From: a virus | Reading direction: 5' to 3' (one strand) | Length of the DNA: 64,000 bases | IMG/VR virus record: IMGVR_UViG_3300022752_000023 | Coordinates: 64,001 to 128,000 of that record | In this document: one piece after another, positions 7,498-61,523 of the stretch | Position numbering within the stretch: the stretch's first letter is position 1 | Layout of the letters: every line of letters begins with the position of its first letter | Position numbers and translations under genes: made by a program | The notes under the pieces: model-generated | The model's input: only the letters and a program-made list of their open reading frames with translations | Told to the model about the DNA's origin: nothing | Database searches by the model: none

Positions 7498-7950
7498 TTA
7501 TCTGCCGTCTGTTTCGCAGTAGATTACAAATGTACAACCGCACTGCTGCGCAAGCCTTACAACGTTTGGCGCGTACACAGAGACGATTTTTGTTTTGTCT
7601 ATTTTGTTATCAGCGATTAACGCTAGAAGACCCAGCTTTGCAATTCCGCGTCGCCGGTATTCAGGGTCAACAAAACATTCGACCGTTTGTACAACTGTCG
7701 GGCGACCTTTGAAATTTTCGGTCCACGGGCGCGTTCCAACCCAGCCTGCTAGCGTTTCGTCTACCCAGATGAGCGCGAGGGCCATTTCTGGGTGCGGCTG
7801 CTCGTGATTGACGTGCAGATAACGCTTAGCGAGTTCTTTTTGAATTGAGCTGTCGCTGCCAGAATCCGGCCACGACAATCTTGTCATGATCGCCGTCACA
7901 TCGACCAGCCCGAGGCGGTTGATATCTTTGATTTTGATCGAAATATCCAC
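7498..7950 (-). CDS. GNAT family N-acetyltransferase
   Basis: FVDPEYRRRGIAK acetyl-CoA binding motif A; GGAGG SD before GTG. Confidence 0.85.
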   Translation of the reverse strand: MDISIKIKDINRLGLVDVTAIMTRLSWPDSGSDSSIQKELAKRYLHVNHEQPHPEMALALIWVDETLAGWVGTRPWTENFKGRPTVVQTVECFVDPEYRRRGIAKLGLLALIADNKIDKTKIVSVYAPNVVRLAQQCGCTFVIYCETDGR

Positions 7951-7977
7951 AGCTGGTCCTCCGTGACCAACTATGGA
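7946..7977 (-). promoter_or_regulatory. CsrA-type RBS hairpin (13-bp stem, ACGGAG loop) sequestering the GTG start of the GNAT gene
   Basis: UCCAUAGUUGGUC-ACGGAG-GACCAGCUGUGGA; both non-Watson-Crick pairs are G.U on the - strand. Confidence 0.7.
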
Positions 7978-7988
7978 GTATACATTAG

Positions 7989-8192
7989 CGCGGTAGGCGG
8001 GAGTCGAACCCGCTGCAGTAGATTTTCGGCCCGTCCGTCATTTCGGCAATTAAGTATGCGCACTTTTGCACACCGGAGATCAATCCGGCGGTAAATCACT
8101 CGCTCGCATACACCGGCTTCGTCCGCTCAGGTGATCAACCCATATCCGTCTACTGCATCAAGCGTTAAGCGCGCGCCCCGCGCATCTACCGC
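7989..8192 (-). ncRNA. tRNA/tmRNA-like structured RNA of unknown class (~204 nt)
   Basis: 7-bp acceptor stem GCGGUAG/CUACCGC, T arm GCGGG-UUCGACU-CCCGC, 9-bp UGCAGUAGA/UCUACUGCA helix enclosing a 126-nt insert. Confidence 0.75.
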
Positions 8193-8196
8193 AAAG

Positions 8197-8267
8197 AGCC
8201 CCCAGAAGGAATCAAACCCTCATCGGCTGATTACAAATCAGCTGCATTATCATTATGCTATGGGGGC
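8197..8267 (-). tRNA. tRNA-Thr(UGU), CCA not encoded
   Basis: Cloverleaf GCCCCCA/TGGGGGC, D arm GCAT/ATGC, anticodon arm GCTGA-TTTGTAA-TCAGC, T arm GAGGG-TTTGATT-CCTTC (variant T loop). Confidence 0.85.
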
Positions 8268-8690
8268 ATTTTTATTTGGCCATTTGAACTGTTTAGCTGT
8301 TTTTCGTCTGTGGCAATTTGCGCAGCGAACGACGCATTTTTTTATTTCGTGTGCTACGGCTTTTGCGCTGCAGTTTTTAAGTCGCGACACACTGTTTAGT
8401 TTTTGTCCGCGAACGTGGTCAAATTCTAGTACAACCGGATCGCTTTCACCGCAATCGACGCAGGGGTGTGTGCTTAAATATTCGCAGATAAACTCGTGCG
8501 CTTTGTTTCGTGCTGCTCGACGATTTAGTTTTATGTACTGCCGCCGGTGCGGGTGCTCGGCGTAATGCTCGCGATCGTACTTTTGTTTGCACGGCCGGCA
8601 CATACTTGCGCAACCCGTCTTTGTTGCCGCGCGTTTTTGAAATTCTGTATACGGTTTTGTTTTTTTACACCGCGTACATTTTTTTTGCAT
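8253..8690 (-). CDS. HNH endonuclease with N-terminal zinc ribbon
   Basis: CTRC/CRPC, CVDCGE.DPVVLEFDHV...EIKKCVVRCANCHRRKT. Confidence 0.88.
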   Translation of the reverse strand: MQKKCTRCKKTKPYTEFQKRAATKTGCASMCRPCKQKYDREHYAEHPHRRQYIKLNRRAARNKAHEFICEYLSTHPCVDCGESDPVVLEFDHVRGQKLNSVSRLKNCSAKAVAHEIKKCVVRCANCHRRKTAKQFKWPNKNAPIA

Positions 8691-8718
8691 GTCGTCGTTC
8701 CTCCATGAACGTACGACA
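8690..8718 (-). promoter_or_regulatory. CsrA-type RBS hairpin (AUGGAG loop) of the HNH gene
   Basis: CGUUC-AUGGAG-GAACG, extendable by UGUCGU/ACGACA. Confidence 0.65.
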
Positions 8719-8747
8719 ATTTTAACAATTACAAATCAAGACTACAA
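8719..8747 (-). promoter_or_regulatory. sigma70-like promoter for the HNH-tRNA-ncRNA unit
   Basis: TTGTAG-N17-TAAAAT with TGn extended -10. Confidence 0.5.
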
Positions 8748-8748
8748 G

Positions 8749-59481: not shown

Positions 59482-60408
59482 TCACTTGAAGTTAACGCGA
59501 GCCAGACCGTTGGTATGGCCGAACGAGCCACCCGAAGTCTGATAGGCGAAGTACTCAAGCATGTAAGCTTCACGACGGATGTACATCGTGGTGGGCTCCA
59601 GCTCGTAGTTCTTGCCGATGAACTTCGGCGACGCGAACATGAACAGCGAATCATCGGGGACAAGATCGCGCTTGATCGTGACGATCCAGCGGCAGTTGAG
59701 GAAGTTAGTCTCCGCCCAACCGTTCTTGATGATGTCCTGCGAAAAGTCGCCGCCCATTTCGTCACGGCCGAACTTGAGGAGTTCCTTGATCGTGATGTTA
59801 TTCACGAGGCAGGTTTCAACCTCGAAGTGCGACGGCGTGCGGGGCATGACCTTCAGCGCGTCAACAAGGGTCTCACGGGTGATGCCGCCCGAGATCTCCT
59901 CGTACTGCACAACGCCGCTGGCGACGTTGGCAACACCCGGAGTCGGGAGCACGGCGTTGAAGGCGGCAATAAACTTGCCGTCCTCTTCAGCCAGCATGTC
60001 CTTGATCATGTTGTCGCTGAGGACCTGACGGATGTCGATCACGTACGTACGCAGCTCGTCGACGTCCTTCACAGCGCGGGGCGACACGATCCGGTCAAAC
60101 ATGACGCGGTAGCGCGGGCCACGGATGTAGAAGTTAATCGGGAGCGTCGCAAACGGAAGCGACACAGCCGCTGGGGAATCGGGCTCCTTGTCCACAACCT
60201 TGACGGGCTTGTCAGTGTCAACCTGACGGTCAAGCTCGTCGTTGGTGATGGTCAGCGGCGGCATAATCCGCCGGTAGAACCCGTCTTCACGCATTTTGGT
60301 GCGCGTGAAGTCGTTAACCGCGTCGATGGCCTGCTTCTGCATGCCGGGGGTGTCAAGCTGCTCAAAGAGCGTTTCGTTGAGCAGTTGGATCTCTTGCTGA
60401 GTGGGCAT
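59482..60408 (-). CDS. major capsid protein
   Basis: ~308 aa after protease/scaffold/decoration genes, strong codon bias; GGAGG SD favours ATG 60408 (MPTQQE) over 60423. Confidence 0.8.
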   Translation of the reverse strand: MPTQQEIQLLNETLFEQLDTPGMQKQAIDAVNDFTRTKMREDGFYRRIMPPLTITNDELDRQVDTDKPVKVVDKEPDSPAAVSLPFATLPINFYIRGPRYRVMFDRIVSPRAVKDVDELRTYVIDIRQVLSDNMIKDMLAEEDGKFIAAFNAVLPTPGVANVASGVVQYEEISGGITRETLVDALKVMPRTPSHFEVETCLVNNITIKELLKFGRDEMGGDFSQDIIKNGWAETNFLNCRWIVTIKRDLVPDDSLFMFASPKFIGKNYELEPTTMYIRREAYMLEYFAYQTSGGSFGHTNGLARVNFK

Positions 60409-60412
60409 TTTG

Positions 60413-60428
60413 GGAACCTCCATGTTCC
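60413..60428 (-). promoter_or_regulatory. CsrA-type RBS hairpin of the major capsid gene
   Basis: GGAAC-AUGGAG-GUUCC. Confidence 0.65.
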
Positions 60429-60447
60429 TTAATTAGTTAGGGATAGG

Positions 60448-61026
60448 TCAGTCGATTGTGGCCGCAGTGCCCGCCGGCAGGTACACGCACCAGAAGGAAA
60501 GCGTGTCCACGCCATTGTGGTTCTTCGACGCGCCACTCGAAACAACACCGCAAACCGGGTTTACGTACTGCACGGCGTTGGCCTTCGTCAGCACACCCTC
60601 AACGGCAGCGCCGCCAGTGGTGGGAGCAGTCAGAAGATCACCGGGGTTGTACGTCACCGCGCTACCGCCGGACGTCTTCACGTACTCGGTGGTGGCGATT
60701 TCATAACCACCGGTCGCAACAAGACCAGACAGCTTGCCCGAGGGCGAAACCGCTTGGTGCATGAAGTTACCGGCCGCTGTGGTACCCGGATTGCTGACGT
60801 CAGCATCCGTCGAACCGTTCAGCAAGAAGATCGCGACGCCCGTGGCCGACAGACCCGGAACGAACACGTCCTTACCGCCCTCTTTGGCGAGCGTTACGAC
60901 GCGACCGCGCGGGACATCATACGTGACTGTGCTCGCCAGCTTGGCCGAGTAGTCAAGGGACGCCATATCGAACCAGCCCTTTTTAACGTCAAGGCCGTGT
61001 TCAAACATAAGATCAGGAGCAGGCAT
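60448..61026 (-). CDS. capsid decoration/cement-like protein
   Basis: GGYEIATTEY, YNPGDLLT; directly upstream of the major capsid gene. Confidence 0.7.
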   Translation of the reverse strand: MPAPDLMFEHGLDVKKGWFDMASLDYSAKLASTVTYDVPRGRVVTLAKEGGKDVFVPGLSATGVAIFLLNGSTDADVSNPGTTAAGNFMHQAVSPSGKLSGLVATGGYEIATTEYVKTSGGSAVTYNPGDLLTAPTTGGAAVEGVLTKANAVQYVNPVCGVVSSGASKNHNGVDTLSFWCVYLPAGTAATID

Positions 61027-61030
61027 TGTT

Positions 61031-61044
61031 AGACCTCCGTGTCT
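61031..61044 (-). promoter_or_regulatory. CsrA-type RBS hairpin
   Basis: AGAC-ACGGAG-GUCU. Confidence 0.6.
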
Positions 61045-61081
61045 TTCTCAATTGGAAACGTGTTCCGTAGGGGGGACGAAC

Positions 61082-61507
61082 TCAGGTAGTGGGCGGGTTA
61101 AGACCAAGGCCCGTAAACAGCTTTACGTCGGAAGCCTTGAGGCGACCATCGCGGGCACCCACATACCCGCTCGTCAGACTGGTCGTCGGGTCGTAGCTGG
61201 CGGCCTTTGTGGCAACCGGCGTACCCAGACGAGCCATTTCAGCTGCGTTTTTATGCGCAGCTAATTTGATAACAAGTTCCATCGTGCGCACCGGATCTTG
61301 CAGGGCGGCGGCAAGCGCCTCCTTCTGGTGCGCCTCGATCCGCTCGTTTTCCACGCACGCCTTGACGGCTTCGGGGATCAGGTGAGCCAGCTTTTCGCTG
61401 ACTTCAACCTGCGCCTTTTCGGCGGCGGCGGCTTTGGTCATCGCCGCATCGGAATAACCGATGTAGTCGATGATCTTATGTACGAGCGCGTTATTTTCGG
61501 TAGACAT
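61082..61507 (-). CDS. KxA-motif head assembly protein
   Basis: GGAGG SD within AC-ACGGAG-GU; KAAA, KLAA, KNAA, KAAS. Confidence 0.75.
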   Translation of the reverse strand: MSTENNALVHKIIDYIGYSDAAMTKAAAAEKAQVEVSEKLAHLIPEAVKACVENERIEAHQKEALAAALQDPVRTMELVIKLAAHKNAAEMARLGTPVATKAASYDPTTSLTSGYVGARDGRLKASDVKLFTGLGLNPPTT

Positions 61508-61523
61508 TAAAACCTCCGTGTGA

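Follow-up and report, generated by a model that had tools for sequence, protein, structure and literature searches.

Candidate CsrA-type hexaloop hairpins on the ribosome-binding sites of capsid, sheath-like, and other genes in a clade of large phages

The locus and its hairpins

The DNA analyzed here, called the window in what follows, is a stretch of 64,000 nucleotides (nt) corresponding to bases 64001-128000 of a single IMG/VR virus record of 144,420 bp that is estimated to be 71% complete and has nearly all of its genes on the - strand. The window encodes a small protein of the CsrA family, and the leaders of several of its genes, among them the major capsid gene, can fold into a hairpin that displays the GGA of the Shine-Dalgarno sequence (SD) in a six-nucleotide loop closed by a C-G pair (Table 1). 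The original prediction for this DNA proposed that csrA and at least eight such hairpins on ribosome-binding sites (RBSs) make up a phage regulon. All eleven of its pairs of coordinates and sequence, namely eight hairpins and three weaker variants, proved exact on the - strand.

Table 1. Positions of csrA and of the hairpins (numbering of the window unless stated)
Feature	Position	Strand	Gene or remark
csrA, 96 aa	13922..14212	-	CsrA domain at residues 1-50, then a Thr/Ser-rich tail of ~45 aa
GGAAC-AUGGAG-GUUCC	60413..60428	-	Leader of major capsid gene; start ATG at 60408
AGAC-ACGGAG-GUCU	61031..61044	-	RBS of 192-aa gene upstream of capsid gene (putative "decoration")
AC-ACGGAG-GU	61512..61521	-	RBS of 141-aa gene (putative "head protein"); stem of only 2 bp
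AAC-ACGGAG-GUU	58614..58625	-	RBS of 330-aa gene (putative "adaptor")
GGC-ACGGAG-GCC	55332..55343	-	RBS of 1075-aa sheath-like gene; weak PHROG tail-sheath matches
GGAC-AAGGAU-GUCC	33618..33631	-	616-aa tail gene (putative "baseplate/fibre")
CGUUC-AUGGAG-GAACG	8696..8711	-	RBS of HNH endonuclease gene (PHROG 2255, E 1.4e-33)
13-bp stem, ACGGAG loop	7946..7977	-	GNAT gene (PF00583, E 7.7e-8); GUG start in 3' arm
6-bp stem, AUGGAA loop, C-G closed	728..745	-	Intergenic, ~26 nt before the start of ORF (open reading frame) 393-701
Four further sites outside the window	Loop-closing C at genome 137373, 134454, 46993, 16843		Whole-record scan

In the capsid leader, the start codon is the ATG given in Table 1 and not the AUG of the loop, and relatives with an ACGGAG loop carry no AUG there. 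A different placement is found in the tail gene, where the start AUG spans the loop and the 3' arm, with the SD GGAGG located in the 5' arm. The hairpin of the adaptor-like gene forms the top of a longer helix extending to the start codon, and an extended helix is also found at the HNH gene (ΔG of -14.1 kcal/mol; fold z of -4.05 against flank shuffles). The GNAT helix reaches -20.9 kcal/mol, with a z of -5.17. The additional hairpin at 728-745 lies in a region with no DNA match in five relatives. Among the carriers outside the window, one gene encodes a SEC-C-motif protein and three have no known function.

The idea that these genes form a regulon of virion proteins fits in part: capsid and sheath-like genes carry hairpins, but so do the HNH, GNAT, and SEC-C-motif genes. 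The gene labels of the original prediction are likewise of unequal standing. Capsid and sheath find weak support, the former through its 28% identity to what is annotated as major capsid protein in Salmonella phage Arash, whereas decoration, head protein, adaptor, and baseplate/fibre obtain none from Pfam or PHROG.

The csrA ORF matches Pfam family PF02599 over residues 1-50 with an E value of 1.1e-19 and 70.5 bits (cut-off 27), in agreement with the original assignment, and also PHROG 9500, "CsrA-like regulator". Its residues 1-48 align with RsmE of PDB code 2JPP, and its best PDB matches are RsmE and CsrA chains. The protein keeps the RNA-binding residues L2, L4, R6, R44, and L47 of strands β1 and β5, with valine at position H43 and arginine at position Q29. 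Moreover, M1, L2, V3, R6, V30, G33, R44, and E46 are invariant across 14 CsrA homologues of the clade.

Enrichment and loop geometry within genomes

The 144-kb record contains the motif CA[CT]GGAGG 12 times on its - (coding) strand and once on the + strand. Eleven of the 12 coding-strand copies sit 4-9 nt before a start codon, all with complementary flanks, giving stems of 3, 4, 2, 4, 5, 3, 3, 5, 13, 3, and 3 bp, whereas C-ANGGAN-G within coding sequence mostly has the closing pair alone. The second stem pair is A-U at six of the eleven sites, G-C at three, and U-A at two, and it therefore covaries inside the genome. GGAGG serves as SD in 18 of the 165 called genes of this genome, and in the csrA-free sister clade described below in 62-87 per 211-259 genes. 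Here, 10 of the 18 are preceded by CAY, against an expectation of about 1/32.

Genes were called with a simple codon-usage caller whose starts are picked by SD strength, start codon, and coding score, a rough procedure that missed the HNH gene. Comparison with shuffles that preserve the SD, as the original prediction had suggested, reveals a strong enrichment: nine C-ANGGAN-G hairpins with stems of at least 3 bp lie on SDs, against 0.31-0.34 expected and a maximum of 3 in 1000 leader shuffles. Permuting the 3' flanks among SD-bearing genes gives a similar picture, with 17 hexaloop stems of at least 3 bp against 4.8 (p <5e-4). Also, when no gene calls are used, stems of at least 3 bp are present at 65% of the C-ANGGAN-G sites before an ORF and at 15% of those elsewhere. 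Raw counts of CANGGAGG were rejected as a measure, because CAAGGAGG is an ordinary SD and such counts are enriched even in the hairpin-free genome G028; only stem-aware counts were used.

The geometry of the loop was addressed with a register test in which 0-5 unpaired bases 5' of the GGA were combined with 0-3 unpaired bases 3' of it and all loop cells were tabulated. In the six hairpin-bearing genomes, the hexaloop of 2 nt, GGA, and 1 nt is found 122 times against 45.0 expected (z of 11.4). The two further raised cells (z of 10.4 and 4.0) lie on its diagonal and are interpreted as these hairpins counted with open inner pairs. The remaining loop sizes and registers are at chance, and the seven hairpin-free genomes are flat. 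In the genome analyzed here, other loop sizes are, if anything, depleted (18 against 27 expected). The three weaker variants at 2839, 13798, and 17031 have loops of 7-9 nt, belong to this class at chance, and thus give no signal. On the other hand, the ANGGAN loop proposed as a CsrA site is supported: the sole enriched loop form has the geometry of the high-affinity CsrA/RsmE site as published, in which an ANGGAX hexaloop sits directly on a stem, with the RBS loop ACGGAU of hcnA as prototype (Duss et al. 2014, PMC4005645).

If hairpins are chosen by pairing alone, the commonest closing pair is C-G, and A occupies loop position 1 in 14/17, 8/13, and 33/37 cases in three csrA-bearing genomes, as opposed to 1/9, 4/9, and 1/9 cases in relatives that lack csrA. 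Most hairpins are marginal on their own, with 0 to -5 kcal/mol, and several cap a longer helix extending as far as the start codon. Weak stems combined with a fixed loop are as expected for a site stabilized by a protein.

Conservation of the stems across relatives

In the leaders of the capsid, decoration-like, and head-like genes of relatives, CA.GGAGG is constant and the stems differ. For example, the arms of the capsid leader are GGAAC/GUUCC, AGAAC/GUUCU, AAGAC/GUCUU, GCAC/GUGC, GAUC/GAUC, and UUC/GAA. The covariation score of this leader is 0.379 against 0.132 for shuffled alignments (38 distinct sequences), and that of the decoration-like leader is 0.301 against 0.111 (36 distinct sequences), with none of 500 shuffles as high in either case; slid controls score much lower than both alignments. 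These alignments took in motif-bearing sequences only, so they test the stem and not the loop. A constant loop together with compensatory changes in the stems supports that the hairpin structure is under selection, as had been proposed from the varying stems of this single genome.

Other sites are kept as well. Sixteen distinct relatives have the motif at 61512-61521, on a stem of 1-4 bp, and 10 close relatives have the sheath-site hairpin, where the arm is GCC or GCU (G-U). The tail-gene hairpin is kept in 15 relatives, in one of which the arms GGC...GCC accompany a compensatory Ser-to-Pro change of the second codon; its loop is ACGGAU in one relative and an AGGAU pentaloop in another.

Distribution of csrA and hairpins across the clade

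No near relative of this phage is present in INPHARED, the phage GenBank collection, and its capsid protein is 27-28% identical to the capsids of Salmonella phage Arash and of some 187-kb Vibrio phages. The related loci were gathered by capsid-based searches in IMG/VR (64, later 80, out of 284 matches), where complete relatives measure 170-235 kb. PF02599 was searched in 48 related records, and the same stem-aware RBS test was run on 14 fetched whole genomes. Contigs of metagenome-assembled genomes (MAGs) were rejected as evidence on the host, since they can be mis-binned; one of them, CAZVEM010000126.1 (15.7 kb, from an "uncultured Nannocystaceae" MAG), encodes a capsid protein 69% identical to that of this phage, which is either mis-binning or a weak hint of the host.

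Five genomes with csrA are enriched in hairpins on SDs: this phage (G000, 9 against 0.31 expected), G012 (23 against 1.1), G009 (7 against 0.66), G048 (9 against 0.47), and G040 (8 against 0.41). Six genomes without csrA are not enriched (G016, G017, G018, G027, G028, and G032). The comparison of relatives with and without csrA that the original prediction had put forward is thus borne out by these six, but two genomes contradict it, since G044 carries hairpins without csrA and G046 carries csrA without hairpins. In G044, nine hairpins are found against 0.69 expected. Its record is 100% complete with terminal repeats, and no csrA is detected in it even at an E value of 10 with a clade-specific hidden Markov model; the best match (E 0.19) was rejected as a csrA remnant because it lies in antisense orientation within a 798-aa gene. 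The csrA of G046 is intact, including R44, and yet this genome has only one hairpin against 0.40 expected. Two further genomes are less clear-cut: G041 is borderline (2 against 0.37), nests among the csrA-bearing genomes, and belongs to a lineage in which the RBS hairpins have largely faded, and in G014 (84% complete) no csrA was found and the enrichment is mild (4 against 0.72). In G041, a frame of 132 codons that opens at base 171068 of the + strand resembles β4-β5 of CsrA in its C-terminal half (IRLRFTATQSVAIDRKEV) and is very divergent in its N-terminal part.

In the capsid tree, the genomes with neither csrA nor hairpins form one clade of 7 rows (clade A, six genomes tested), and the rest form a second clade of 31 rows (clade B), in which csrA is present in 22 of the 24 records that are at least 90% complete and hairpins in six of the eight genomes tested. 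The association between csrA and hairpins has an uncorrected Fisher p of 0.026, and it consists of one deep split and three changes inside clade B, of which that of G041 is concordant and those of G044 and G046 are discordant. Phage csrA is therefore not obligatory for the hairpins, and the tie between the two is not strict.

Possible function of the hairpins

Since these structures are real, specific, and selected, and are shaped as the best CsrA site, a protein of the CsrA family is the likeliest reader. We give about an even chance (roughly 0.5) to the reading in which the hairpins are RNA operators for such a protein, of phage or host origin; when the version in which only host CsrA reads them is added, a CsrA-family reader becomes probable. 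In the proposed mechanism, about a dozen mRNAs would offer the GGA of their SD in an A-N-G-G-A-G hexaloop closed by C-G on a short, mostly weak stem, the carriers being the capsid gene, its two neighbours, the adaptor-like and sheath-like genes, the tail gene, the HNH and GNAT genes, and the four genes outside the window. A CsrA dimer would clamp these loops, either the 96-aa phage protein or, probably in addition, host CsrA if the host has one, and binding would block loading of the 30S ribosomal subunit because the loop is the SD. Synthesis of these abundant proteins would thus be kept low or put off until their mRNAs outnumber free CsrA. From hcnA and glgC we infer repression through SD occlusion; activation or mRNA protection would be a conceivable alternative outcome. 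Given G044 and G046, a strict "phage CsrA regulon" is only one version of the operator reading, and host CsrA may be the reader or the main one. A self-contained viral switch, in which early CsrA silences virion mRNAs until these exceed the CsrA pool, so that late control would be sharp, translational, and based on titration, is put forward only tentatively.

Several observations weigh against a CsrA operator, or against a tie to the phage protein. It is counter-intuitive that a repressor should target the most abundant virion proteins. An antagonist RNA like CsrB or RsmZ has no Rfam match in the window, and among the intergenic regions of the 71%-complete record none exceeds 3.7 GGA per 100 nt or folds into arrays of GGA loops. 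No hairpin of this kind was found in the leader of csrA itself when an autoregulatory site was sought in 16 homologues. A second GGA, with which one dimer could bridge two sites, accompanies the loop in some leaders, such as those of the capsid gene (AAGGAA in the 5' arm) and the tail gene (GGAGGA), and other leaders have none within 70 nt. Moreover, a strong SD context partly favours C-G closure and A at loop position 1 in any case, as A stands there in ~40-50% of all SDs. To the discordant G044 and G046 must be added that the co-occurrence of csrA and hairpins at the level of clades amounts essentially to one evolutionary event. Finally, C-ANGGAN-G is entirely absent from the SDs of two unrelated phages with csrA, Vibrio phage 431E45.1 and Pseudomonas phage BR153a, so the trait is specific to the clade.

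Some of these facts would be explained if only host CsrA read the hairpins and the phage csrA had other, host-directed targets, both features being adapted to CsrA-using hosts; as a sponge, the abundant late mRNAs could also free host genes repressed by CsrA. Both discordant genomes would follow, and so would the unrelated csrA-bearing phages without self-targets of this kind. Also, phage csrA correlates with csrA-bearing hosts, and host manipulation has been proposed for it (Campa et al., PMC8450108), so that host CsrA would be the common cause of both features. Nonetheless, nearly all of the well-covered clade B records keep csrA alongside the hairpins, with invariant RNA-binding residues, and a phage CsrA of canonical specificity would bind the sites regardless of its "purpose". 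We regard a host-only reader as rather unlikely. A similarly low probability is assigned to the view that no protein is needed, the hairpins holding a strong SD single-stranded and insulated for reliable, high initiation and their likeness to CsrA sites being coincidental. In its favour, most carriers are highly expressed genes, this genome has few GGAGG SDs and over half of these lie in hairpins, the closing G belongs to GGAGG, an A two bases before GGA is common in any SD, and G044 bears hairpins in the absence of csrA. However, display of the SD would not lead one to expect enrichment of the 2+GGA+1 loop alone, with loops of four, five, seven, or more nucleotides at chance or depleted. At loop position 2, A is avoided here (C in 8, U in 4, and A in 5 of 17), which weakens the SD, and ribosomes would be hindered, not helped, by the 13-bp helix of GNAT and the extended one of HNH. 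Besides, the sister-clade phages, for all their 62-87 GGAGG SDs per genome, lack such hairpins.

A very improbable alternative is another factor specific to the clade, be it an RNA-binding protein, a RegB-like nuclease that cuts GGAG, or an altered component of the ribosome. For most of the clade's genes no function is known, and G044 shows that phage csrA is dispensable for the upkeep of the hairpins. On the other hand, no homologue of S21, RegB, or RegA was found in this genome and four relatives, although the searches for RegB and RegA had no positive control; no candidate is in hand, and the exact fit to an independently defined CsrA optimum would have to be a coincidence.

Comparison with known CsrA systems

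Bacterial CsrA targets usually contain 2-6 GGA sites and are antagonized by CsrB/CsrC RNAs. Dubey and co-workers are said to have obtained in 2005, by SELEX (systematic evolution of ligands by exponential enrichment), the consensus RUACARGGAUGU for CsrA. Coat-protein operator hairpins of MS2, Qβ, and PP7, as well as T4 RegA, are cases in which a phage protein represses phage translation at an element of the RBS. The scheme proposed here would resemble them in its phage protein acting on the RBS, and the RNA phages also in the use of a hairpin, but the protein families and RNA motifs are unrelated to those of the phage CsrA hairpins, and these systems repress early or replicase genes, whereas the carriers here are mainly virion genes.

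The phage sites resemble the hcnA leader bound by RsmE in Pseudomonas protegens (PDB code: 2JPP) in having the SD GGA within an A-N-G-G-A-X hexaloop on a short stem closed by C-G and overlapping the RBS; relative to ACGGAU, the phage loops ACGGAG and AUGGAG deviate solely at N and X, the two free positions. Unlike hcnA, position 6 of the phage RBS loops is always G, which completes GGAGG, an upstream helper GGA (GGA#3 of hcnA) is not evident in every phage leader, and the candidate sites, of which a genome has about a dozen, lie on mRNAs of the virus's own structural genes. The operators of E. coli CsrA in glgC, cstA, and pgaA share the AC-A.GGA.-GU architecture, and repression through a 30S block would match them as well. 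The sequence RUACARGGAUGU is cited as the SELEX-derived consensus (PMC4005645), and its core, including the AUG, is matched by C-AAGGAU-G of the phage tail gene. Unlike the E. coli Csr system, no sponge RNA was found in the phage, either by Rfam in the window or by GGA density in the intergenic regions of the record.

csrA is present in ~1% of phages, where its role was described in a survey as yet to be tested (PMC7366521), and knock-down of csrA in phage PTXU04 leads to small plaques (PMC11879866). CsrA homologues on mobile elements also include RsmQ of plasmid pQBR103 (PMC9928087) and those of a second phage survey (PMC8450108). All these are alike in that a CsrA-family gene resides on a mobile element, but for them action on host mRNAs has been proposed or shown, and cognate sites on structural genes of the element are not reported. 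Literature searches likewise yielded no report of a phage csrA acting on, or having cognate sites in, the phage's own genes, in line with the original statement that a phage-wide CsrA late-gene circuit is not known to have been described. The loop-register test and the enlarged tree are new in this analysis, as are the two discordant genomes, which weaken an obligatory link to phage csrA.

This clade of ~200-kb phages thus offers short, defined candidate CsrA targets on its own capsid and sheath mRNAs, together with natural controls, namely relatives with neither feature, one with hairpins only (G044), and one with csrA only (G046), so the role of a phage CsrA becomes directly testable even without a cultured host. 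If the operator reading is true, a post-transcriptional layer would be added to the late-gene control of large phages, and a bacterial global regulator would have been re-used as a viral operator-repressor pair. If the more tentative switch exists, it would be the first virus-owned CsrA regulon and would provide the first concrete targets of any phage-encoded CsrA.

Further features of the window and of the clade CsrA proteins

Some 20 nt upstream of the hairpin of the adaptor-like gene, there is a strong 14-bp intrinsic terminator at 58645-58676 (- strand) with a TATAAT-like box after it, and a similar terminator-like hairpin precedes the site at genome position 134454; because of these terminators, some hairpins may sit near transcript 5' ends. 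A tRNA-Thr (UGU) at 8196-8267 (- strand) overlaps the last ~15 nt of the HNH ORF (8253-8690). An intergenic match to the Rfam DUF3800-VIII RNA (RF03075) is found at 17213-17288 on the - strand, with 44.8 bits against a gathering score of 40.2.

The CsrA proteins of the clade vary at their C terminus. Several share the motif N-G-L-E-R-P, and this phage and its closest kin have the Thr/Ser-rich tail instead; such tails may be partner-binding parts. At least two separate CsrA matches are present in each of G013, G019, G030, G033, G034, G036, and G046. Finally, in a 163-aa protein of record G010 (locus L070, 1165-1653, - strand), two CsrA domains are joined in one polypeptide, possibly a single-chain pseudo-dimer.

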